Shown: one piece after another, positions 32,619 to 43,936 of the stretch | Numbering within the stretch: the first letter of the stretch is position 1 | How the letters are laid out: each line of letters starts with the position of its first letter | Assembly (NCBI GenBank): GCA_964652955.1 | Contig: CAZZCF010000007.1 | Coordinates: forward strand, 1 to 64,000 | DNA length: 64,000 nucleotides | From: an uncultured Leptospirales bacterium | Lineage (GTDB): Bacteria > Spirochaetota > UBA4802 > JAKQUI01 | Direction: 5' to 3' | The notes under the pieces: model-generated | Database searches by the model: none | The model's input: only the letters and a program-made list of their open reading frames with translations | Told to the model about the DNA's origin: nothing | Made by a program: the position numbers and the translations under genes

Positions 32619-33044
32619 AATGATTTCATACTTTCTGGACGCCGGTTAGGCCGGCATGTCGAACTAAACAAAAAAAAAAATATAAACATAATTGAATCCA
32701 TCATAACAATATCACTACTATCGGCCATTGACATGATGGAAACAAACAATTATTCATTATATATGTATCAAGGTAACAGGTGAGGTGATCTACCGTTTCG
32801 ACACAGGGGAGAAGAGCTCTGATAAGAATGCGGATAGTGAGTTCTCTGTGTCAAGGAGTGCTCATATAAATAAACGCGGTGAACCTCCGAATTTTATGAG
32901 CTTACCTATGACAACGGAATTGTACAGAAAACGAAAATCATCTAATGGTCATGCATACCTGTGGTGTTGCATCCGTTAAATATAAAGCACATCCGGTCAT
33001 TGCAGAGAGCGGTACCGGAAAATTTAAGGGAGGATTATAATCGC

Positions 33045-33989
33045 ATGAATGAAAGCAAAGAGCATCTGAAAAAGAAAGTAGCAGTACTCGATGCTGTCAA
33101 CAGGGTTTTCAGGGAGGCGCTCCTCTGCGAAACGGAGGAGGAGGTTGCCAAGCAGTGCCTCGCGGTCGCCGAGGAGCTGACCGGGAGCAGGTTCGGTTAT
33201 ATCGGAGAGCTGAACGCTGCCGGTCTCTTCGACACCATCGCATTGAGCGATCCGGGATGGGGAGCGTGCAGAATGTCAGAAACAAATAAAGTTACTCTCA
33301 TCTATAACATGGAGATACGGGGCATATGGGGCCGGGTTCTACAAGATGGAAAATCGCTCATCGTCAACGAGCCGGCTTCACATCCCGACAGCACCGGCGT
33401 CCCCGAAGGACATCCGCCCCTGACAGCTTTTCTGGGAGTGCCATTGAAGCAGGTCGATAAGACGACCGGGATGATAGCCCTGGCGAACCGTGAGGGGGGC
33501 TATACTGATGCCGATCGCGAGGCAATCGAGGCTCTCTCGGTCGCCTTTGTGGAGGCCATACGAAGCAAACGGACCGAGCTCACCGTAAAGCAGCTCGCCC
33601 AAGAGATACTGGAGCTCTCCACACCGGTGATGCAGATATGGGATGGGGTGGTGGTGGCGCCGCTCATCGGCACCCTGGACATCGAGCGGACGCAGCAGTT
33701 CATGGAGCGACTCCTGAATGCCATTGTGGAGACGAAGTCTCCGGTCGCACTGATCGACATCACCGGTGTGCCGACCATCGACACGCAGACCGGGCAGCAT
33801 CTCATCGAAGCGATATCGGCTGCAAAGCTTCTGGGAACCGAAGTGGTGCTCACCGGCGTGAGTCCTGTTATTGCGCAGACGCTAGTGCACCTGGGCATCG
33901 ATCTCTCGGACTTCATCACCAGGTCGTCCCTCTCGGCGGGGGTGCGCGTGGCGCTGGATGCTTTGAATCTGCGTGTGGTCAGTAAATGA
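33045..33989 (+). CDS. RsbR-like stressosome sensor paralog 1: N-terminal GAF domain plus C-terminal STAS domain
   Basis: Start chosen at MNESKEHLKK (GGAGG RBS upstream). ORF track starts at 32961. The C-terminal 120 aa (ELSTPVMQIWDGVVVAPLIGTLD...IDITGVPTIDTQTGQHLIEA) matches the RsbR STAS domain. The N-terminal half is GAF-like. Confidence 0.78.
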   Translation: MNESKEHLKKKVAVLDAVNRVFREALLCETEEEVAKQCLAVAEELTGSRFGYIGELNAAGLFDTIALSDPGWGACRMSETNKVTLIYNMEIRGIWGRVLQDGKSLIVNEPASHPDSTGVPEGHPPLTAFLGVPLKQVDKTTGMIALANREGGYTDADREAIEALSVAFVEAIRSKRTELTVKQLAQEILELSTPVMQIWDGVVVAPLIGTLDIERTQQFMERLLNAIVETKSPVALIDITGVPTIDTQTGQHLIEAISAAKLLGTEVVLTGVSPVIAQTLVHLGIDLSDFITRSSLSAGVRVALDALNLRVVSK

Positions 33990-34043: not shown

Positions 34044-34991
34044 ATGGCACAGAGGAAAAAAGATGACGGGAGAGCGCCGGGAAGCGAGTTCCTGTACCGC
34101 ACGCTTATAAACAACCTCCCCCAGAAGATATTCTACAAGGACAAGAATTCAGGGTACGTATCCTGCAACGAGAGCTTTGCAAAGGATTTAGGGATTACCC
34201 CGAGTGAGTTCGCCGGGAAGACCGATTTCGACTTCTTCCCGAAGGAACTGGCGGAGAAGTACCGCACCGACGACCTGCGTATCATGGAGGCCGGTAAAAT
34301 AGAAGAGATTGACGAGAGCTATTTGAAGGATGGAGAGGAGTTCTTCGTCCATACGGTCAAAGTGCCCATCAGAGACGTGGATGGTGAGATCGCGGGCATT
34401 CTCGGCATCTTCTGGGATGCCACCGCTAAAAAGCGTGATGAGGAGGAGCTGCAGCGGTACAAGGAACAGCTCGAGGAGATGGTGAAGGAGCGAACTGCAG
34501 AATTGCATCAAGCGAACGAGCGCCTCGAGGGGGAGATTGCCGAGGGGAAGCGGCGCGAGGAGATAATCGCGCAGCAGTCGCAGGAGATACTGGAGCTCTC
34601 AACGCCGGTACTGAAGATATGGGAGGGAGTTGTGGCGGCGCCGCTCATCGGCACCCTGGACAGCAATCGGACGCAGCAGTTCATGGACGTCTTTCTCAAC
34701 TCAATTGTGGCAAACAATGCACCGGTCGCACTCATCGACATCACCGGGGTGCCCACCATCGATACGCAGACCGGGCAGCACCTCATCGAGGCGATATCGG
34801 CGGCACGCCTCCTTGGCACCGAGGTGATTCTCACCGGGGTGCGGCCCGCCATCGCACAGACGCTGGTGCATCTGGGAATCGATCTCTCCGAGTTCAGAAC
34901 CTGCTCGTCCCTCTCCTCGGGCCTGAGCATGGCGCTGGAGACGCTCAACCGGGAGGTCATATCAAGAGATGACATACAAGGAGATCTGTAA
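34044..34991 (+). CDS. RsbR-like stressosome sensor paralog 2: PAS domain, coiled-coil linker, STAS domain
   Basis: 315 aa. PAS-like N-domain (FYKDKNSGYVSCNESFAKDLG), coiled-coil, then an RsbR-type STAS (ELSTPVLKIWEGVVAAPLIGTLD...). AAGGAG RBS. Confidence 0.8.
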   Translation: MAQRKKDDGRAPGSEFLYRTLINNLPQKIFYKDKNSGYVSCNESFAKDLGITPSEFAGKTDFDFFPKELAEKYRTDDLRIMEAGKIEEIDESYLKDGEEFFVHTVKVPIRDVDGEIAGILGIFWDATAKKRDEEELQRYKEQLEEMVKERTAELHQANERLEGEIAEGKRREEIIAQQSQEILELSTPVLKIWEGVVAAPLIGTLDSNRTQQFMDVFLNSIVANNAPVALIDITGVPTIDTQTGQHLIEAISAARLLGTEVILTGVRPAIAQTLVHLGIDLSEFRTCSSLSSGLSMALETLNREVISRDDIQGDL

Positions 34992-35226: not shown

Positions 35227-36219
35227 ATGAGCAATGAGAGGAAAACAAAAAAAAAGCTTATCGAAGAACTGGAGGGACTGCGCGGCAAAATAACTGAACT
35301 CGAAGGGGCTATGTCTGAAGAAGAACCGATGTTACGTCGCGAACAGGATTTGATAGAGCTGAACAGGATGATGATATCGGCTTCAACGTTCGGTATTATC
35401 GTGTATAAGGCTTCCGGACAATGTGTTATTGCAAACGAAACGGCAGCCAAATCCATCGGTGCAACCAGAGAACAGGTGTTGCAGCAAAACTTTTACCATA
35501 TAGAATCATGGGAAAAGAGCGGTTTGCTTGAGGCAGCGAAAGGAGCACTCAAAGATGGATCGGATAAGAAGATTGAAATACATACTATTTCAACATTTGG
35601 GAAGGATATCTGGTTGGGATGCCGTTTTACTCCGTTTGTATACCTTGATGAACAATACCTCATGCTCATTTTTGAAAATATTACCGACCGGATTATCGTT
35701 TCACAGGAGCTGCAAAGAACCCGTGACGAACTGAAGGAGAAAAACGAGAAACTCGAGAAGGAGATATCAGAGGGCAGAAAACGAGAGGAGATAATAAGAC
35801 GGCAGCATCAGGAAATACTGGAGCTCTCAACACCTGTCATGAAAATCTGTGAGGGCGTGGTGGCGGCGCCTCTCATCGGCACACTGGACAGCCAGCGGAC
35901 GCAGCAGTTCATGGATGTCTTTCTCAATGCCATTGTTGATAACAACGCGCCGGTTGCTCTGGTGGATATCACCGGAGTTCCCACCATCGATACGCAGACC
36001 GGCCAGCATCTCATCGAGGCCATATCGGCGGCGCGCCTCCTGGGAACCGAGGTGATTCTCACCGGAGTGCGGCCCGCCATCGCGCAGACCCTGGTGCATC
36101 TCGGAATCGATCTCTCAGATCTCAGGACCTGCTCCTCCCTATCGGCAGGGCTGAGCATGGCGCTGAGGACGCTCAACCGGGAGGTCATATCAAGAGATGA
36201 CATACAAGGAGATCTGTAA
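35227..36219 (+). CDS. RsbR-like stressosome sensor paralog 3: PAS domain, coiled-coil, STAS domain
   Basis: 330 aa. PAS N-domain. The C-terminal STAS is nearly identical to paralog 2 (ELSTPVMKICEGVVAAPLIGTLD...NREVISRDDIQGDL). Confidence 0.8.
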   Translation: MSNERKTKKKLIEELEGLRGKITELEGAMSEEEPMLRREQDLIELNRMMISASTFGIIVYKASGQCVIANETAAKSIGATREQVLQQNFYHIESWEKSGLLEAAKGALKDGSDKKIEIHTISTFGKDIWLGCRFTPFVYLDEQYLMLIFENITDRIIVSQELQRTRDELKEKNEKLEKEISEGRKREEIIRRQHQEILELSTPVMKICEGVVAAPLIGTLDSQRTQQFMDVFLNAIVDNNAPVALVDITGVPTIDTQTGQHLIEAISAARLLGTEVILTGVRPAIAQTLVHLGIDLSDLRTCSSLSAGLSMALRTLNREVISRDDIQGDL

Positions 36220-36599
36220 TGGGAGCTGAAAATATATCGGTCATTAAGATGGGAGATACGCTCATGGTTACGGTTCCGGCCGATCCGGACGACGAGACGG
36301 TATCCGCGCTGCAGGAGCGGATTCTCGCGGCAATGGAGAAGCACGAGGCCAAGGGATTGATACTTGACTTATCCACCGTCGAGACGATGGATTCCTTTTT
36401 CGCGCGGATTGTGGCCGAGACCGCACAGATGGTTCAGCTCATGGGCGGCCGGACGGTGATCGCGGGGATGCGGGCGAGCGTTGCCATCACCACCACGCAG
36501 CTGGGGCTGACCCTGGGGAATGCCATGACCGCCCTCGACGTGGACTGGGCGCTCCTGATGCTCGTCAGGAAACCGGCCGGAGGCATTGGGGATGAATGA
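36219..36599 (+). CDS. rsbS: RsbS-like single-STAS anti-sigma-factor antagonist (stressosome scaffold)
   Basis: 126-aa STAS-only protein with the conserved phosphorylatable region (LILDLSTVETMDS). Translationally coupled (TAATG) to the preceding rsbR paralog. Confidence 0.82.
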   Translation: MGAENISVIKMGDTLMVTVPADPDDETVSALQERILAAMEKHEAKGLILDLSTVETMDSFFARIVAETAQMVQLMGGRTVIAGMRASVAITTTQLGLTLGNAMTALDVDWALLMLVRKPAGGIGDE

Positions 36600-37008
36600 C
36601 AACGAAAATCCGATTGGCGAGGTTCCAATTCAGAACGAGGGCGATATCGTATCGGCCCGTAAGGTCGCGAGAGAGGTGTCGCAAAAGCTCGGATTCGGCG
36701 TCACCGATGTCACCCGAATCGTGACTGCGGTCTCGGAGCTGGCGCGAAATATCTACCGCTTTGCCGGAACGGGGATAATGCGCTGGAGTGTCATGAACGA
36801 GGGTATTGTCGGTATTGAGCTCATATTCGAGGACAAGGGACCCGGCATCACCGATATTGAACAGGCTATGGGCTTGGGATTCACCAGCGGGCAGGGACTG
36901 GGGATGGGGCTTCCCGGAGCCAGGCGGCTCATGGATGAGCTGGAGATCGAGTCGCGGGTGGGAGTCGGCACCACGGTGACGGTGCGAAAGTGGCTCAAGA
37001 GAAAATAA
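36586..37008 (+). CDS. rsbT: RsbT-like GHKL serine kinase (switch protein)
   Basis: 140 aa. N-box SELARNIYRFAG, G1 DKGPGI, G2 GLGMGLPG. Overlaps the rsbS 3' end as in rsbRST operons. Confidence 0.82.
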   Translation: MGMNDNENPIGEVPIQNEGDIVSARKVAREVSQKLGFGVTDVTRIVTAVSELARNIYRFAGTGIMRWSVMNEGIVGIELIFEDKGPGITDIEQAMGLGFTSGQGLGMGLPGARRLMDELEIESRVGVGTTVTVRKWLKRK

Positions 37009-37009
37009 C

Positions 37010-38023
37010 GTGATTGATTCGGAACATTCCATACCGGTAACGCACACAGGCGATGTGAACAGAGCGCGCACGGCAGCAAGGGAAGCAGCCGTGAATATCG
37101 GTTTTGCCGAGAAGGAGGGGGAGGAGATCGCCCTGGTGACAAGCGAGCTCGCCACCAACCTCTGCAAGCATGCGAGGGGCGGCGTTCTGATCATCTCGGC
37201 AATCGGGGAAGGAACGAAGCGGGGGATTCAGGTTGAAACGTCCGACCGGGGGCCGGGAATAGCCGATGTCGACGATGCAATGACCAACGGCTTTTCCACA
37301 ACGGGGAGCCTCGGGTACGGGATTGGAACGGTTATCAGGCTCATGGATGAGGTTGCTGTCAGTTCCCTGGAGAAGGATGCCGGCACGAGGGTGATCTGCA
37401 AAAGATGGGTTCGCGATATGAGTGACGGGGTAAAGAGATGTCCGCTCGATTTCGGCGTTGCAATCCGTCCCCGTCCGGGGAGCAGCCTTAACGGCGATGC
37501 GTATGTAATCAGGAAGTGGAACGATTGTGCACTGGTCGGACTCATCGACGGTCTCGGGCACGGACAGTTTGCTCATCGTGCATCGCAGACGGCAAAGAAG
37601 TACATCGAGAGGCATTTCGAACAGCCGCTGCAGAATCTCTTTCTCGGGACGGCGCGGCAGTGCCGGTCAACGCGGGGAGTGGTGATGGCGCTTGCCCGTT
37701 TCGACTGGGAAGCAAAGCGGCTCACCTTCGCGAGCGTGGGGAATGTCGAGGTGCGGGTAGTAAATAGCCACGAGAAGTTTTCTTTTATTCAGCGGCGTGG
37801 CGTCATCGGTCTCAATGCGCCCGCTCCGGCGGTTACCGAGCACCGGTGGGAGGAGCACTATATTATGATTATGCATACGGATGGATTGAGAACGCGATGG
37901 CAGTGGAAGGATTTTCCGGAGCTCGTCGAGCAATCGGCAACCGAAGCAGCGCGTTTGTTTCTCCATAAGCTTGCAAAGGATATTGACGACGCAGCGGTTC
38001 TGGTGGTGAAGAGGAGAATATGA
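37010..38023 (+). CDS. Fusion protein: RsbW/RsbT-like GHKL kinase domain plus PP2C (SpoIIE-type) serine phosphatase domain
   Basis: 337 aa, GTG start. N-terminal GHKL motifs (SELATNLCKHARGG, DRGPGI, GYGIG). C-terminal PP2C metal-binding Asp motifs (GDAYVI, DGLGHG, MHTDGL). Confidence 0.78.
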   Translation: MIDSEHSIPVTHTGDVNRARTAAREAAVNIGFAEKEGEEIALVTSELATNLCKHARGGVLIISAIGEGTKRGIQVETSDRGPGIADVDDAMTNGFSTTGSLGYGIGTVIRLMDEVAVSSLEKDAGTRVICKRWVRDMSDGVKRCPLDFGVAIRPRPGSSLNGDAYVIRKWNDCALVGLIDGLGHGQFAHRASQTAKKYIERHFEQPLQNLFLGTARQCRSTRGVVMALARFDWEAKRLTFASVGNVEVRVVNSHEKFSFIQRRGVIGLNAPAPAVTEHRWEEHYIMIMHTDGLRTRWQWKDFPELVEQSATEAARLFLHKLAKDIDDAAVLVVKRRI

Positions 38024-38880
38024 AACAGGAGGAATTGCAGAAAAAGCTTGATAAGGCCTTGAGAACAATTCAGTCGCTTCAAGGTGAGCTCAGAGAGACC
38101 AATCAGGGCGTCATAGCACTCAACCTTGAGCTGGAGCAGCGGGTTGAGGAGAAGGAGAGGGCGGAGGAAGCGCTCCAGGATGCAAACAAGGAGCTCGAAG
38201 CCTTCAGCTACTCGGTATCGCATGACCTCCGGGCGCCGCTGCGTGCCATTGACGGCTTCGCCAATATACTCCTCGAGGAGTACAATGATGTGCTCGATGA
38301 TGAGGGGAAACGATTAATCGGTATAATTATGAAAAACGTCAATTCGATGGGGCAGCTCATCGACGATCTCCTGGCTTTCTCCCGGTTGAGCCGTCAGCAG
38401 ATGCAGCGTTTGGTGATAGACGTGCGACCGCTGGTTCAGGAGGTTGTCGACAATCTCATGCAGAGTGAAAATAACCGAAATATCGAATGGAAGATCGACG
38501 CGCTCCCCCCGGTGATCGGCGATCGCTCCATGATCCGGCAGGTCTACGCCAATCTCCTCTCCAACGCGATCAAGTTCACCCGGAAGCGGGATATCGCCCG
38601 CATCGAGGTGGGAGCACGTAAATGTGATGAGGAGATTGTCTATTTTGTACGGGATAACGGTGCGGGATTCGATATGCAGTATCAAGAGAAGCTCTTTGTC
38701 GTTTTCCAGCGGCTGCACAGCGAGAAGGATTTCGAGGGGACCGGTGTCGGTATGGCCAACGTCAGGCGCATCGTTCACCGGCACGGGGGACGGATCTGGG
38801 CGGAGGGGAAGGTCGGCGAGGGCGCGACTTTTTATTTTACCATTCCACCCGAGGAGGGAACCGATGAAATATCCCGATGA
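38020..38880 (+). CDS. Soluble histidine kinase (N-terminal coiled-coil, HisKA, HATPase_c). No sensor domain.
   Basis: 286 aa. About 60-aa coiled-coil, then H-box SHDLRAPL and GHKL motifs (DNGAGFD, GTGVGMA). ATGA overlap with the upstream gene. Confidence 0.85.
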   Translation: MKQEELQKKLDKALRTIQSLQGELRETNQGVIALNLELEQRVEEKERAEEALQDANKELEAFSYSVSHDLRAPLRAIDGFANILLEEYNDVLDDEGKRLIGIIMKNVNSMGQLIDDLLAFSRLSRQQMQRLVIDVRPLVQEVVDNLMQSENNRNIEWKIDALPPVIGDRSMIRQVYANLLSNAIKFTRKRDIARIEVGARKCDEEIVYFVRDNGAGFDMQYQEKLFVVFQRLHSEKDFEGTGVGMANVRRIVHRHGGRIWAEGKVGEGATFYFTIPPEEGTDEISR

Positions 38881-39396
38881 AGTTGGGAGTCTCCCCGTCG
38901 AAGTCCTGACCGGCGAGGTCAAAGTCGCCGCTGTTGGAGTCCTCCGCGCCAGCGCGTTGGGTTCATGCGTTGCGGTTGCGATGCTCGATGTTGAGGCCGG
39001 GATCGGCGGTCTTGCGCACGTGATGCTGCCGGGGTCCTCACCCGGTTACCGGGATGCAAAAGGAACGAAGTACGCCGAGGACGGGATACGCGAATTGATT
39101 CACTCCATGACGGCGCAGGGTGCGCGGCTCGAAAGTCTCGTGGCCTGTGTGTTGTCGGCGGCGGCAACATCCTCGAGCGTTATGACGACACGATCTGCGA
39201 GGCGAATATCAGGTCGGTTACCAAGGTTCTCGCAGGGATGGGCATTCGGATAATGGCCTGCGAGGTGGGTGGCTCCCAACGAAGGAGCGTTTCCCTCGAC
39301 GTGGAGTCCGCTCGTGTTTCCTGCACGGTCGGGGACTCGGCCTCGAAGCTGCTATGGCAAGGCCGGGGCGAGCGAGAGGAGGATGTCAACTCATGA
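38864..39396 (+). pseudogene. cheD: cheD (chemoreceptor glutamine deamidase) with an apparent single-base frameshift near 39148-39155
   Basis: Starts at MKYPDEV (GAGGAGG RBS) with the CheD core LGSCVAVAMLD...GGLAHVMLPG. After ...LVACV the reading frame shifts. The conserved continuation VGGGNILERYDD...ACEVGGSQRRSVSLDVESARV runs in the other frame to a TGA overlapping the next gene's ATG. Confidence 0.65.
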
Positions 39397-42092
39397 AGCG
39401 AAGGACAAAAGCGGATATACAACGAGAGAAGGGAGAGTTCCGCCAGCGCAGCACCGAACTGGAGTGCTCGGAGGACGGTACGTCGGAGAGCGGCAAGCTG
39501 GCGGCGGAGGTGAAAATCAAGGAAGCCCAGTATCGCGGGGTATTCGAGGCATCGAAAGACACTATCCTCATTTTCGATCTCGACGGCGTGATCAAAGAGG
39601 TCAATCCCGCCGCCTGCGACATGTATGGCTACTCGCACGGGGAGATGGTCGGACTCACCGGGAGGGACATTGTGCATCACGACTATCACCACTTGTTCAA
39701 GGAATTCGTTGCGAAAGCAGGGGCGGGCGAGCTGTTTGCCGCCGAGTCGGTTGATCTTCGGAAAGACGGTTCACAATTTGACATAGAGGTCAGAGGAAGT
39801 GGTTTCGAGTATATGGGCCGCCCTCATCTTCTCGCCATCGTTCGTGACATCACTGAGCGCAAGCAGATGGCGAAGGGCCTCCGGCGCATGGCGACGGTGG
39901 TGAGAGACTCCAACGACGCGATCACGATCCAGGACTTCGAGGGTAGGATCACGGACTGGAACCACGGCGCCGAGCTGATGTACGGCTATTCTGAGGAAGA
40001 GGCGTTCCAGTCGAACATCGATCGTCTGACGATTCCCGCCAAGGTTGCAGAGCAGAATGCTTTCATCCAACGGTTGGCGGCGGGCGAAGACGTCACGTCG
40101 TTCGAGACCCAGCGGGTGACCAAGGACGGGCGCGTCCTCGATGTCTGGATGACCGTCACCAAGCTGATGGACGATGCCGGCAAGCCGATTGGCCTGGCCT
40201 CCACCGAGCGCGACATCACCGAGCGCAAGCGGGCCGAGGCGGCGCGCGACGCTGCCTACCAGCAGCTCCTTAAGGCGGAACGAGATCTCTCAATCAGAAA
40301 CAAGATCAACGAGATATGCCTGACCATATCCGACGAGGAGATGTACGGCGAGATTCTGAAGGTCGTCTTGGAGCAGTTGAAGAGCAAGTACGGGACCTTT
40401 GGATGCCTCGAAGAGGACGGCTCACTGGTCGTCCCTTCCATGACCAGGGACGTCTGGGATCAATGCCGAGTTCCGCAAAAGGACATTATCTTCCCAAGAG
40501 ACAAATGGGGAAACAGCATCTGGTGCCGGGCGATCCTGGAGAAGAAGACCCTTCATTCAAATGAGCCGTCATACGTTCCAGAAGGGCACATCCCCATCCT
40601 TCGCAACATATCTGTACCCATCACATATGAGGGCAAAGCAATCGGCCTGTTCCAGGTCGCCAACAAGGATGCGGATTACGACGAAAACGACATCCAGATT
40701 CTCGAAACTATCGCCGGATTCGTAGCGCCGGTTCTAAATGCCAGGCTGCAAAGAGACAGGGAACTGCGGGAGCGCGAAAGAGCCGAAGAAGCGCTCAAGG
40801 CGTCAAACCAACAACTGGTGGCCAGCGAGCAGCAGCTCCGAGCAGCAAATCAGCAATTAGATGCCGGCAACCAGCAGCTCAGGGCCACCGAGCAGCAGCT
40901 TCGCGCGTCGAATCAGCAACTGGAGGCGAGCAATCAGCAGCTCCGGGCAACCGAGCGAGAGCTTCGGCAAAGCGAGCAGTTCATCAGGGCGGTGTTGGAC
41001 AACCTTCCTGTCGGCGTCGCTGTGAACTCGGTAGATCCCGCCGTGGCGTTCAGCTATATGAACGACAGCTTCCCAAGGATATACCGCACCACCAGAGAGG
41101 CGCTCGCCGACCGGGATGCCTTCTGGGAGGCGGTATATGAAGACCCCGTGTTCCGGGCGGAGATCAGGAAGAGGGTGCTGGAGGACTGCGCAAGCGGAGA
41201 CCCGGGAAGCATGAGATGGGAAGACGTCCCGATAACGCGCGAGGGGCAGGAGACTTCCTTCATTTTCGCGCGCAACATACCGGTTGCCGGAAAGGACCTG
41301 GCGATATCCATGGTATGGGATGTGACCGAGCGCAAGCGCGCGGAGGAAGAGCTCAGAAGACACCGCGATAATCTCGAAGAGCTGGTCGCGGAGCGCACCG
41401 TAGAGCTCGAGGCCTTCAGCTACTCGGTATCGCATGATCTCCGGACGCCGCTGCGGGCCATCGACGGCTTCGCAAATATTCTCCTCGAGGAGCACAACGA
41501 TGCGCTCGAAGAAGAGGGAAAACGGCTGCTCGGCATTATAATGAAGAATGTCAATTCAATGGGACAGCTCATCGACGATCTCCTGTCCTTCTCCCGGCTG
41601 GGCCGGCAGGAGATGAAGCGTATGGAGATTGACGTGCGGGCGCTGGTTCGGGAGGTTATCGACAATCTCATGCAGAGTGAGAATAATCGTAATATCGAAT
41701 GGAAGATCGACACGCTCCCTTCAATGATCGGCGATCGCTCGATGATACGGCAGGTCTACGCCAATCTCCTCTCCAACGCGATCAAGTTCACCCGGAAGCG
41801 GGATGCCGCGCGCGTCGAGGTAAGTTCCCGGGAGATCGACGAAGCAATTGTCTATTTCGTGCGGGATAACGGCGCTGGCTTCGATATGCAGTACGCGGAG
41901 AAGCTCTTCGGCGTCTTCCAGCGGCTGCACAGCGAGAAGGAGTTCGAGGGGACCGGGGTCGGCCTTGCCAATGTCAGGCGCATCGTTCACCGGCACGGGG
42001 GCAGGATCTGGGCCGAGGGGAAGGTCGGCGAGGGCGCGACTTTTTATTTTACCATTATGCATGAGGAGGGAACCGATGAAATATCCCGATGA
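39393..42092 (+). CDS. Cytoplasmic multi-sensor histidine kinase: PAS-PAS-GAF, heptad-repeat coiled-coil, PAS, HisKA, HATPase_c
   Basis: Start chosen at MKRRTKAD (AGGAGG RBS; track ORF starts at 39354). Two PAS (DITERK linkers), a GAF-like block, eight 7-aa repeats (A-x-N/E-Q-Q-L-R), a further PAS, and a kinase core paralogous to 38020..38880. Confidence 0.85.
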
Positions 42093-42519
42093 AGTCGAGA
42101 TTCTTCTCGTCGAGGACAAGGAGGAGGACGTGGAGCTCACTCTGCGGGCGCTGCGAAAGAACAACCTGGCGAACCGGGTGCACGTGGTTTCGGACGGCCA
42201 GGAGGCGATTGATTTCATCTTTGGGAAGGGAGCATACAGTGGGAGAGATATCAACCATACACCGAGGGTTATTCTCCTCGACCTGAAGCTTCCCAGGGTG
42301 AGCGGCCTTGAGGTGCTTCAGAGGATCAAGTCTGATGAACGGACAAAGGTGATACCGGTGGTGATGCTCACCTCCTCCAAAGAAGAGCAGGATATCGTCG
42401 AGAGCTACCGGCTGGGGGTGAACAGCTACATCGTCAAGCCGGTGAGCTTCAACGATTTCGTGAAGGCGGTTACCGACCTGGGCCTGTACTGGATGCTGCT
42501 CAATAAGCCGGCATTCTAG
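42076..42519 (+). CDS. Single-domain response regulator (REC only)
   Basis: 147 aa. Starts [18 protein letters not shown]. Acceptor in VILLDLKLP. Conserved K in IVKP. Overlaps the kinase 3' end. Confidence 0.82.
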
Positions 42520-42529
42520 GAATGTAAAT

Positions 42530-43936
42530 ATGATGAGCGAAGCAGCAAGAGATCTGCATATACTGATGCTCGAGGACAGCGAGGCCGACGCCGAGCTCAT
42601 AATCAATGAGATGCGAAAGGGCGCTCTCGCCTTTACGTACCAAAGGGTGGAGACGCGGGAGAAGTATCTCGCGGCAATTGAAAAGTATATGCCCGACATG
42701 ATTCTCTCGGACAACAGCCTTCCCGCTTTCGACGGCCTGTCGGCGCTCAGTATTGCGCAGGAAAAATGCCCCGAGGTCCCCTTCATCTTCGTCTCCGGGA
42801 CCATCGGCGAGGAGGTGGCCATAGAAACGCTGAAAGCCGGCGCGACCGATTACGTCATCAAGGACAGGCTCTCGCGGCTTGTTCCGGTAATAGAACGAGC
42901 ACTGAGGGAGGTGGAGGAGCGGCGGGAGAAGAGGCGGGCCGAGCAGCTCCTTTTGGAGAGCGAAAAGCGGTACCGGAGCCTCTACGAGGATGCGCCCATC
43001 GCCTACTTCACCATCGGCAGTGATCGCTCCATACGGCAGGCGAACAGCGCGGCAACTAGGCTTCTCGGCTATTCGAAGGACGAGCTTCTCCGTATGGAAT
43101 TATTTGATCTCTATTCCGACAATCCCGAGGGATTGTCCCGGGCGCGGAGCCACTTCGAGCGGTTTCTCCGGGGAGAGAATATCGACGACGAGGAGCTCAT
43201 GATGCGGAAAAGCGACGGCGAGCCGGTCTGGGTGAGCCTCGCCGTCCGTCCCGTCAGGGACGATCGGGGAGCCGTCGTGGAATCCCGATCCATGGCCATC
43301 GATATCACCGATCGGAAGCTGGCGCAGGAAGAGCTGGCAAAGAGCTTTGTCAAGCTCCGGAAGACCCTGAACGACACCATTTACGCCATGGCGCTCACCA
43401 TCGAGTCGCGGGACGCCTACACCGCCGGGCATCAGCAGAGGGTGGCCCATCTCGCGTGCGCCATTGCGGAGGAGCTGGGCATGCCGGCCGAGCAGATTGA
43501 GGGACTGCACATGGGCGCCATTGTCCACGATATCGGCAAGATCTCCATTCCCGCGCAGATTCTGAGCAAGCCGGGGAAGCTTCTCAAGGAGGAGTTCGAG
43601 ATAATTATCACCCACCCGCAGCAGGGATATGACATTCTCAAGGGGATTGATTTCCCCTGGCCGGTTGCGGAGATGGTGCTTCAGCATCACGAGCGGATAA
43701 ACGGCACCGGTTATCCCGGCGGGCTCAGGGATGGGGAAATACTCATTGAATCGAAGATACTCGCCGTCGCCGATGTGGTCGAGGCGATGTCCTCTCATCG
43801 TCCGTATCGTCCCAGCGTGGGTATCGTGAACGCCCTCGGGTACATTCAGATGAACAGCGGCGTTCTCTTTGATGCAGGAGTGGTCGGAGCCTGTGAGACT
43901 GTTTTCGAAAAGGGATTTGAATTTGAGGAGGGATAA
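42530..43936 (+). CDS. Response regulator with PAS and HD-GYP (c-di-GMP phosphodiesterase) domains
   Basis: 468 aa. REC (DMILSDNSLP), PAS, and HD-GYP with an intact HD (HQQRVAHL, VHDIGK) and GYP (HHERINGTGYPGGL). Confidence 0.85.
   Translation: MMSEAARDLHILMLEDSEADAELIINEMRKGALAFTYQRVETREKYLAAIEKYMPDMILSDNSLPAFDGLSALSIAQEKCPEVPFIFVSGTIGEEVAIETLKAGATDYVIKDRLSRLVPVIERALREVEERREKRRAEQLLLESEKRYRSLYEDAPIAYFTIGSDRSIRQANSAATRLLGYSKDELLRMELFDLYSDNPEGLSRARSHFERFLRGENIDDEELMMRKSDGEPVWVSLAVRPVRDDRGAVVESRSMAIDITDRKLAQEELAKSFVKLRKTLNDTIYAMALTIESRDAYTAGHQQRVAHLACAIAEELGMPAEQIEGLHMGAIVHDIGKISIPAQILSKPGKLLKEEFEIIITHPQQGYDILKGIDFPWPVAEMVLQHHERINGTGYPGGLRDGEILIESKILAVADVVEAMSSHRPYRPSVGIVNALGYIQMNSGVLFDAGVVGACETVFEKGFEFEEG

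Follow-up and report, generated by a model that had tools for sequence, protein, structure and literature searches.

An RsbX-type phosphatase joined to a divergent RsbT-like ATP-binding domain in a stressosome operon of an uncultured Leptospirales bacterium

Bacillus, Listeria, Moorella, and Vibrio have furnished the existing models of the stressosome. For these organisms, the accessible papers describe the phosphatase that resets the complex as a plain single-domain protein and the feedback on it as transcriptional. RsbX of RSTX modules was described as a single-domain PP2C (PMC9237108, 2022), and Bacillus was reported to use transcriptional feedback on rsbX (PMC9237108). A GN signature defines the RsbX-like group of PP2C phosphatases (PMC4524716). 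Proteins that unite a kinase and a PP2C are also known. They include (i) SypE of Vibrio fischeri, in which an RsbW-like kinase and a PP2C both control phosphorylation of the STAS protein SypA (cited in PMC3999984); and (ii) PP2C and anti-sigma kinase fusions of the Rv1364c/OsaC type (PMC12143880, PMC10117811).

Here, a window of 64,000 nucleotides from an uncultured Leptospirales bacterium (positions 1 to 64,000 of contig CAZZCF010000007.1) was analyzed. It contains a stressosome operon encoded on the forward (+) strand. The operon opens with three RsbR paralogues, namely (i) a GAF + STAS protein (32961-33989; Pfam GAF_2 2.5e-23, STAS 3.1e-14); (ii) a PAS + STAS protein (34044-34991; PAS_4 8.7e-19, STAS 1.1e-10); and (iii) a second PAS + STAS protein (35227-36219; PAS_9 and STAS). 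The STAS-coding DNA of paralogue 2 is 73-80% identical to that of the other two. These genes are followed by RsbS, a single STAS domain (36219-36599; STAS 8.1e-13), and the switch kinase RsbT (36586-37008; HATPase_c 7.6e-11, HATPase_c_2 1.5e-10), for which the gene caller chose the ATG at 36592 as start, giving 138 aa. Directly downstream on the same strand lies the gene under study (37010-38023), as expected from the original prediction that it occupies the place of rsbX. We refer to its product as T'X, with T' denoting the N-terminal half. No sigma factor gene was found in the T'X operon, either in the ORF list or by Pfam analysis of the operon genes.

T'X starts with a GTG codon one base past the rsbT stop and comprises 337 aa, as supported by the ORF call, Pfam, homologues, and an AlphaFold2 model; an independent gene caller recovered the same product on a 74-kb ENA contig. 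The proposed union of a GHKL and a PP2C domain in one polypeptide was confirmed by Pfam, with HATPase_c_2 at residues 15-128 (E = 6.7e-12, 46 bits, cut-off 27.4) and SpoIIE/PP2C at residues 197-335 (E = 2.3e-6, 28.1 bits, cut-off 25). The protein was divided into the T' domain (aa 1-135, 37010-37414 on the + strand), which has a GHKL fold paralogous to RsbT, an interdomain linker (aa 136-145, 37415-37444, +), and a PP2C domain of RsbX/MtX type (aa 146-337, 37445-38023, +). At the end of the linker, C144-P145-L146 recurs in 90% or more of the close homologues and is not conserved among the distant members of a set of 161 diverse full-length representatives. Pfam gave no Response_reg match in T'X, whose halves are separated by these roughly 10 residues. 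The AlphaFold2 model reached a pLDDT of 88.4 and a pTM of 0.77, with values of 75-87 in the linker and low confidence in the ATP lid (aa 95-102). Since this pTM exceeds what a pair of domains (135 and 190 residues) moving freely about a hinge should give, it suggests, as the one measure used, that the modeled interface between T' and PP2C may be fixed.

An assembly or sequencing error that joined separate kinase and phosphatase genes has next to no probability and is refuted by the same unbroken 337-aa ORF on independent assemblies and by full-length homologues, roughly 340 aa long, that number in the thousands. In sequence sets clustered at 50% identity, T'X matched at least 716 clusters with E ≤ 1e-30, and an alignment-based scan of a one-genome-per-species collection found 457 loci, archaea among them. 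Gene order and the presence of RsbT were counted in 80 fetched loci. Nearly all of them, from many bacterial phyla and archaea, showed the order R-S-T-T'X-effector, and modules of this type also occur in Asgard genomes. Carriers include the culturable Chthoniobacter flavus (locus L078). Two longer ORFs (411 aa in locus L072 and 470 aa in locus L074) looked like triple fusions of RsbT, T', and X; they were rejected, as each contains only one HATPase_c_2 domain and the extra length therefore stems from the choice of the longest ORF. The T'X of the window typifies a very large bacterial and archaeal family whose members are annotated automatically, for example as 'ATP-binding SpoIIE family protein phosphatase'.

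The size of the family bears on the original prediction. The fusion is not unusual, and kinase-PP2C proteins acting on STAS proteins have a characterized precedent in SypE (cited in PMC3999984). It had been asked whether the fusion is a widespread, already characterized RsbX subtype. Widespread it is, given the very large family, and as far as we found it is not characterized. Open-access full texts yielded no description of an RsbT-like-PP2C fusion from stressosome operons, and no experimental or biochemical study of any family member was found in the open-access literature. The papers on photoglobin (PMC8717448) and on a Methylacidiphilum globin (PMC4476040) are silent on the fusion. As far as checked, the characterized relatives RsbX and MtX are single-domain proteins, in line with the prediction that the fusion itself had escaped characterization.

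The phosphatase half is nearest, in sequence and in fold, to Moorella MtX and B. subtilis RsbX. Searches with phmmer matched T'X to MtX (3zt9, 5e-18) and RsbX (3w40, 3.9e-10). In Foldseek, the T'X model, which has the compact fold of bacterial Group II PP2C (PPM) phosphatases, superposed on MtX 3zt9 with a TM score of 0.93 (rmsd 1.7 Å, 28% identity) and on RsbX 3w40 with 0.82, so that the structure prediction proposed as a check agreed with the domain assignment. The metal-site motifs, predicted to be intact, indeed line up with those of RsbX and MtX. They comprise GD163 (D163 at nt 37496-37498), D180-G-x-G-H184-G185 (nt 37547-37564), D291-G292 (nt 37880-37885), and D326-D327 (nt 37985-37990); the GN signature of motif 5 is present as G244-N245. 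Among 120 close homologues, the metal-site and the ATP-site residues are invariant. In the 161 diverse representatives the Asp residues are kept in 99-100%, and the metal-site Asp motifs together with the GN signature in 98-100%.

RsbX (PDB 3W40) and MtX of Moorella thermoacetica (PDB 3ZT9) thus have the PP2C fold, the Asp motifs, and the GN signature in common with T'X. T'X also resembles RsbX-type phosphatases in being co-encoded with rsbR, rsbS, and rsbT, directly after rsbT, and the gene for MtX likewise lies straight after rsbR-rsbS-rsbT and ahead of an effector gene. Unlike the characterized RsbX-type phosphatases, which are single-domain proteins of about 200 aa (199 aa in RsbX, 193 aa in MtX), T'X carries an extra N-terminal ATP-binding domain of 135 residues. 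The idea that the crystallized MtX might be a piece of a longer fusion was dismissed, since in Moorella the native gene directly follows rsbT and its product has 193 aa.

The N-terminal half was predicted to be an intact GHKL kinase domain of RsbT/RsbW type, and the first part of this statement was borne out. The N-box (E46/N50, nt 37145-37159), the G1 box (D79-x-G81-P-G83, nt 37244-37258), and the G2 box (G102-x-G104-x-G106, nt 37313-37327) are intact and align with the solved structure of SpoIIAB, with E46/N50 corresponding to its N-box Glu/Asn; ATP-binding residues are therefore present on alignment. The fold and the ATP motifs are shared with RsbT. T' is nevertheless not a copy of RsbT, from which it diverges at about 34% identity. 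RsbT sequences share 58% identity on average and T' sequences 48%, against a mean of 34% between the groups, and the T' of the window is 36% identical to the adjoining RsbT over 138 aa. Judged from these identities, T' is an old, divergent RsbT paralogue forming a separate group. The RsbT of the window carries E18, R25, R29, T40, D41, T43, R44, T47, and R54 on helices 1 and 2, all invariant in 74 RsbT orthologues, whereas its T' differs at seven of these nine positions. Two RsbT-type arginines, R20 and R24, are present in the T' of the window and are kept in 74% and 51% of T' domains. An RsbT orthologue would be expected as a free-standing protein of about 135 aa and as the sole GHKL kinase of its module, while T' is fused to a phosphatase. 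A separate rsbT gene was found in 76 of the 80 loci, so T' is no replacement for RsbT. For the same reason, the suggested self-contained rheostat had to be abandoned: a canonical RsbT is encoded directly upstream in the window as well.

The best solved structural match of T' was SpoIIAB (PDB 1TIL, 1TH8; Foldseek TM 0.75 and 28% identity for 1til). SpoIIAB forms a dimer, stands alone, and binds a sigma factor as well, in contrast to T', which is fused and encoded in an operon lacking a sigma factor gene.

The partners offer sites for a phosphorylation cycle. RsbS has a phosphorylatable Ser59 in the motif M-D-S59-F, and Asp58 and Ser59 are invariant in all 74 RsbS proteins of related loci. In RsbR paralogue 3, Thr256 and Thr288 correspond in position to the phosphosites T171 and T205 of B. 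subtilis RsbR; these positions hold Thr/Ser in 84, and Thr in 81, of 85 RsbR STAS domains from related loci. With the invariant serine and the conserved threonines, a phosphorylation cycle exists that can be reset. We infer, with a probability of roughly 0.5, that T'X is the reset phosphatase of this stressosome and that T' serves as a nucleotide-dependent docking or gating module. The module would then consist of three RsbR sensors, RsbS, the switch kinase RsbT, T'X, and a histidine kinase as output. Its PP2C domain most likely strips the phosphate placed by RsbT off RsbS-Ser59 and probably also dephosphorylates the RsbR threonines, whereupon RsbT could be recaptured. T' is predicted still to bind ATP and is proposed not to duplicate the signaling role of RsbT. 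Instead, it would dock the phosphatase on the stressosome through the RsbR STAS domains and/or RsbT, gate its activity depending on nucleotide, and supply post-translational feedback where Bacillus relies on sigma-B-driven transcription of rsbX.

Co-variation between the proteins was assessed by a partial Mantel (mirror-tree) test in 61 loci, a test that is prone to false positives with related sequences such as these. In this set of related sequences, the PP2C domain was coupled to RsbS (r = 0.37, p = 0.001) and T' to both RsbR (0.23, p = 0.007) and RsbT (0.23, p = 0.002), and there was no coupling of T' to RsbS (−0.06) in the 61 loci. The PP2C-RsbS, T'-RsbR, and T'-RsbT couplings would lend weak support to a reset phosphatase that is docked or gated by T'. 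A strict model of STAS docking is weakened by the arginine matching SpoIIAB R20, a residue that we take to be linked to STAS binding, as it is kept in only 107 of the 161 representatives.

Coupling of T' to RsbR but not to RsbS would also suit a bifunctional kinase/phosphatase similar to SypE, in the sense of the rheostat originally suggested, a possibility that we regard as clearly less probable than the docking or gating module. T' would phosphorylate a STAS partner (e.g. RsbR) while RsbT handles RsbS, the PP2C domain would remove the same or neighboring phosphates, and one polypeptide would set a steady level of phosphorylation through ATP/ADP or conformation. The ATP-binding and phosphotransfer residues of SpoIIAB type, invariant in the 120 close members, are kept in 88-97% of the 161 representatives. 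The ATP-site residues, including the N-box Glu/Asn, are as strictly conserved as in active kinases, which seems more than pure docking would need, and phosphotransfer would fit equally well. SypE (cited in PMC3999984) provides a precedent for kinase and PP2C acting jointly on a STAS protein. Against a second kinase speak the canonical RsbT in 76 of 80 loci and the finding that RsbT is the sole kinase for RsbR as well as RsbS in B. subtilis (PMC9237108). T' also lacks RsbT-invariant residues on helices 1 and 2, there is no SypE-like receiver switch between the halves of T'X, and an unregulated kinase would just burn ATP when joined to a phosphatase acting on the site that it phosphorylates.

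Coupling of T' to RsbT (partial r 0.23, p 0.002) could alternatively point to T' as a receiver for free RsbT, although we consider this unlikely. As GHKL anti-sigma kinases dimerize, RsbT, once set free by the stressosome, would associate with T' and turn on the phosphatase, as RsbT does with RsbU, resulting in a direct negative feedback loop without transcription. T'X modules lack sigma-B and thus the transcriptional feedback on rsbX of the Bacillus type (PMC9237108), and RsbT is known to turn on a PP2C partner through binding (PMC12143880). However, this co-variation is weak, and a remainder of shared phylogeny could explain it. Moreover, the known partners of RsbT (RsbU_N and, here, probably the N-terminal helix of the effector) are helical dimers, not GHKL domains.

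The stop codon of T'X overlaps by 4 nt with the start of a gene for a sensor-less histidine kinase (38020-38880, +; HisKA 6.7e-14, HATPase_c 4.6e-25), through which the module probably delivers its output. This kinase begins with an N-terminal helix, whose conserved motif IQSLQGELRETNQGVIALNLELEQ (aa 17-40, 38068-38139, +) follows the family consensus I-R-x-L-Q-x-E-L-x-E-T-N-x-G-L-x-A-L-T-x-E-L-E. Together with the 71 proteins encoded directly after T'X in related loci, the sample comprised 72 proteins. Kinases with HisKA and HATPase domains accounted for 61-62 of them, and the helix was present in about 70, from bacteria as well as archaea and irrespective of the domains after it. It is covered by no Pfam family. 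In the single-domain RsbX-type loci examined, by contrast, the effector opens with RsbU_N. At one locus (L086), an RsbT-type domain, not one of T' type, is fused to the conserved effector helix. This fusion indicates that RsbT partners with the output, in which case T' would do something else; T' as the partner of the helix, which had been considered, is made unlikely.

The same evidence bears on the idea that T' and/or the PP2C domain act on the downstream histidine kinase and not on the stressosome, which we consider highly improbable. The 4-nt overlap and the helix-bearing kinase or other effector after T'X in about 70 of the 72 cases would fit such a role. On the other hand, the PP2C domain belongs with RsbX and MtX and shows co-variation with RsbS, the L086 fusion involves the wrong paralogue, and single-domain RsbX genes hold the same place ahead of their effectors.

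Further downstream on the + strand, Pfam identified a PAS-PAS-GAF-HisKA-HATPase kinase (39354-42092), the C-terminal part of which duplicates the kinase at 38020-38880 (the repeats at 38191-38490 and 41403-41702 are 86% identical). It is followed by a stand-alone receiver (42076-42519, +; Response_reg 2.7e-20) and a REC-PAS-HD-GYP-type protein (42530-43936, +; HD_5 1.1e-34 with PAS and REC), which are likely the downstream response regulators.

On a broader scale, we tentatively suggest that T'X marks a distinct and ancient stressosome lineage. Its modules would be composed of R-S-T-T'X and an effector with the 'LQxELxETNxG' helix in place of RsbU_N, and would occur in archaea, Asgard genomes among them, as well as across many phyla of bacteria. 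The reset phosphatase of such modules would not be constitutive. Possibly, it is gated by a second ATP-dependent switch domain, or it combines paradoxical kinase and phosphatase activities that hold STAS phosphorylation at a set-point. If this is true, models based on single-domain RsbX miss a whole regulatory layer in T'X modules. The known scheme is not overturned by these findings, which are not confined to this genome. Beside it stands a different and very common layout that reaches into archaea, with its own output coupling, in which the conserved effector helix replaces RsbU_N, and with a phosphatase that has its own conserved RsbT-like ATP-binding domain. Should T' gate or target the phosphatase, or represent a second kinase, reset kinetics and signal adaptation would differ from the textbook case.

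Among the described kinase-PP2C proteins, SypE shares with T'X the N-terminal GHKL serine kinase domain and the C-terminal PP2C, a likeness of published architecture (as cited in PMC3999984). Between the two halves SypE has a receiver (REC) domain, where T'X has a linker of 10 residues. The receiver of SypE switches the protein between kinase and phosphatase modes. The target of SypE is SypA, a single-domain STAS protein of a biofilm pathway, whereas T'X is encoded in a stressosome operon. Rv1364c of Mycobacterium tuberculosis (PDB 3KE6) and OsaC of Streptomyces coelicolor resemble T'X in combining a PP2C with a GHKL kinase of anti-sigma type in one protein. Rv1364c, however, shows the opposite order (PAS, PP2C, kinase, STAS) and has a phosphatase of RsbU type. 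OsaC is far larger than T'X and contains GAF and PAS domains (PMC12143880), and its kinase domain binds sigma-B (PMC10117811). In contrast to T'X, neither of the two is encoded in an rsbRST operon.

The fusion gene (37010-38023, + strand) belongs to a single same-strand gene block in the window. This block comprises, all on the + strand, (i) three RsbR paralogues, one GAF-STAS (32961-33989) and two PAS-STAS (34044-34991 and 35227-36219); (ii) RsbS (36219-36599); (iii) RsbT (36586-37008); (iv) the fusion, termed T'X for its N-terminal GHKL domain (T') and its C-terminal PP2C half (X); and (v) a histidine kinase without sensor domain (38020-38880), whose start overlaps the fusion stop by 4 nt. 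A short CheD-like fragment, a large PAS-GAF kinase, a stand-alone receiver, and a REC-PAS-HD-GYP-type protein are encoded 3′ of this kinase. A simple scan detected no convincing internal terminator in the block, terminator-like sites being fewer than expected by chance. RsbS carries Ser59 within the motif M-D-S-F, and this serine was invariant in 74/74 related loci; in the RsbR proteins, both B. subtilis RsbR phosphosites correspond to threonines, conserved in ~95% across related loci. As these phosphosites are present and conserved, the block makes up a full stressosome module whose phosphorylation cycle has to be reset.

Between the three RsbR paralogues, the STAS-coding segments (33534-33833, 34515-34814, and 35743-36042) are 73-80% identical in DNA, and RsbR2 and RsbR3 share the C-terminal peptide ISRDDIQGDL, suggesting recent duplication followed by exchange of sensor domains (GAF, PAS, PAS). 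The catalytic part of the kinase following the fusion is duplicated in the PAS-GAF kinase at 39354-42092 (38191-38490 vs 41403-41702, 86% DNA identity). Each copy is followed by a gene whose product begins MKYPDEV and which overlaps the end of the kinase gene by 17 nt; the first (38864-39253) encodes the 129-aa CheD-like fragment (weak Pfam match, possibly a remnant), the second (42076-42519) a receiver domain. A 63-nt repeat present in three overlapping copies (40806-40973; starts offset by 63 and 42 nt, identity 62-75%) encodes a Gln/Asn-rich coiled-coil (NQQL...EQQLRA) in the large kinase, between GAF and the final sensor region. The region 27600-50616 is an unusually dense one-strand run of signalling genes, including a 1300-aa REC-PAS(x5)-GAF-HisKA_3 kinase, a LuxR-type regulator, the stressosome module, several PAS kinases, and two REC-PAS-HD-GYP-type proteins; it suggests output via two-component relays and cyclic-di-GMP turnover.

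The fusion starts with GTG, 1 base past the upstream stop codon, and on a 74-kb metagenome contig an independent gene caller predicted the identical protein of 337 aa. Both Pfam matches, HATPase_c_2 over residues 15-128 (E 6.7e-12) and SpoIIE/PP2C over 197-335 (E 2.3e-6), exceeded their curated cut-offs. Upon alignment to solved structures, E46/N50 (N-box), D79-x-G81-P-G83 (G1), and G102-x-G104-x-G106 (G2) matched the ATP-binding residues of SpoIIAB, D163, D180-G-x-G-H-G185, and D291-G292 fell on the metal-site motifs of RsbX and of MtX, the Moorella stressosome phosphatase, and D326-D327 on that of MtX. The original prediction of intact GHKL and PP2C motifs in one polypeptide was therefore correct. 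All these ATP-site and metal-site residues were invariant in 120 close homologues. Among 161 diverse full-length representatives, E46 was kept in 155, N50 in 156, D79 in 150, G102 in 154, and G104 in 155, while D163, D180, and D291 were each kept in all 161, D326 in 160, and D327 in 159. Judged from these alignments, both active sites are under selection, and T' is no decayed remnant, since its ATP-site residues are kept; it would bind ATP, given the strict conservation of the motifs.

An AlphaFold2 model built on 120 sequences (mean pLDDT 88.4, pTM 0.77) was poorly defined only in the ATP lid (residues 95-102), as is usual for the GHKL fold; such a high pTM suggests that T' and PP2C meet in a fixed interface in the predicted structure. 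The PP2C half superposed on MtX (3zt9) with TM 0.93 and rmsd 1.7 A and on RsbX (3w40) with TM 0.82, and carries the Gly-Asn signature that defines the RsbX-like PP2C group (PMC4524716). Judging by its fold and position, together with the conserved phosphosites and the co-variation, this domain would remove the phosphate from RsbS-Ser59 and probably those from the RsbR threonines, thereby resetting the stressosome.

T' superposed on SpoIIAB (TM 0.75) and shares 36% identity with the RsbT encoded next door. Across loci, mean identity was 58% among RsbT orthologues, 48% among T', and only 34% between T' and RsbT, even when both came from the same locus; T' does not conserve nine residues that are invariant on RsbT helices 1 and 2. 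At the sequence level, T' is an old paralogue of RsbT, neither a recent copy nor an RsbT replacement. We favor, at a probability of about 0.5, a role for T' in either docking the phosphatase to the complex or gating it by nucleotide state or free RsbT. The main rival is the originally predicted rheostat, a true bifunctional kinase/phosphatase as in SypE, which the strict conservation of catalytic residues would fit equally well; we consider it less likely, as a separate RsbT is present in 76/80 loci, the RsbT-specific surface is missing from T', and the fusion has no switch domain.

Pairwise distances from 61 loci were compared by partial Mantel analysis, giving weak evidence because shared phylogeny was removed only in part. 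The PP2C domain was coupled to RsbS (r 0.37, p 0.001) and not to RsbR, T' to RsbR (r 0.23, p 0.007) and not to RsbS. T' was also coupled to RsbT (r 0.23, p 0.002), a signal that bears on feedback through RsbT sensing by T', which appears improbable.

A word-indexed search returned >4,000 matches; the best 120 were all ~338 aa with full-length coverage, 50-57% identity, and both Pfam domains, under automatic names including 'ATP-binding SpoIIE family protein phosphatase'. Exhaustive search gave 716 cluster representatives (50% identity clusters) at E<=1e-30; among the best 150, 122 are 300-400 aa, with identity down to ~28%. In a one-genome-per-species collection, searching with nothing more than two short peptide patterns found 457 T'X loci in Bacteria (Chloroflexota, Cyanobacteria, Planctomycetota, Acidobacteriota, Verrucomicrobiota, Deltaproteobacteria, Nitrospinota, Firmicutes, Methylococcaceae, and Bacteroidales) and Archaea (Methanotrichaceae, Haloarculaceae, and Asgard genomes). 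In 80 fetched loci, RsbR(s)-RsbS-RsbT-fusion-effector was the near-universal order. The observation behind the original prediction held and its interpretation did so in part. Far from being exceptional, the gene is a typical representative of a very large family, a distinct subtype of stressosome reset phosphatase, for which we found automatic annotation and no experimental study. Archaeal loci from metagenome bins with possible contamination (L023, L037, L047, L069, L071, L074, and L076; Methanotrichaceae, Haloarculaceae, and Asgard 'Helarchaeota'/'Promethearchaeota') carry complete R-S-T-T'X-kinase modules, except the Haloarculaceae locus L074, where just R, T'X, and kinase were detected. 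In Dehalococcoidales and Anaerolineae loci, two tandem free-standing RsbT-like genes precede T'X (L001:3562-4432, L002:6532-7402, and L060:826-1650), placing three GHKL domains in a row.

The effectors encoded directly after T'X (n = 72, the window's own and 71 from related loci) were HisKA-type kinases in 61-62 cases, and RsbU_N was essentially absent. About 70 of the 72, bacterial and archaeal, have in common the N-terminal helix motif I-R-x-L-Q-x-E-L-x-E-T-N-x-G-L-x-A-L-T-x-E-L-E, irrespective of the domains that come next; in the window it lies at 38068-38139 (+), aa 17-40 of the kinase. No Pfam family covers the motif, which appears to be a previously undescribed docking helix serving stressosome output. 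In an acidobacterial effector (L086:4997-7150), an extra GHKL domain with RsbT-type residues is fused just before the helix (LNRELEDTNRGVVAL), followed by HisKA-HATPase-REC. By gene-fusion logic, this points to RsbT as the docking partner of the helix and therefore leaves T' with a role other than output; that the fusion acts in the output branch is accordingly highly improbable. The effector starts with RsbU_N in 3/3 single-domain-X loci from two lineages, a sample too small for a firm conclusion that nevertheless suggests two module types, X with RsbU_N vs T'X with the ETN helix. One of these loci (L083-L085) is from Moorella, and the other two belong to a single acidobacterial lineage related to Sulfotelmatobacter; in their effectors, RsbU_N is joined to either GGDEF or HisKA_3-HATPase. 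The pairing of T'X with a helix-bearing effector in Bacteria and Archaea is more interesting than the single gene and readily testable.

A full-text literature search found no description of the fused form, though an earlier mention is possible, two key papers lying outside its reach. In a 2022 survey of stressosome operons, RSTX modules are described as having a single-domain PP2C as their RsbX (PMC9237108). RsbX (199 aa) and MtX (natively 193 aa, encoded directly after rsbT in Moorella) are single-domain proteins, whereas the fusion has two domains, in an order found in no solved structure. GHKL kinase and PP2C domains also share one protein in (i) SypE of V. fischeri, where both control phosphorylation of the STAS protein SypA (PMC3999984); (ii) OsaC of Streptomyces (PMC10117811); and (iii) Rv1364c of M. 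tuberculosis (3ke6), with the opposite domain order. The fusion differs from each of these in domain order, content, or context.
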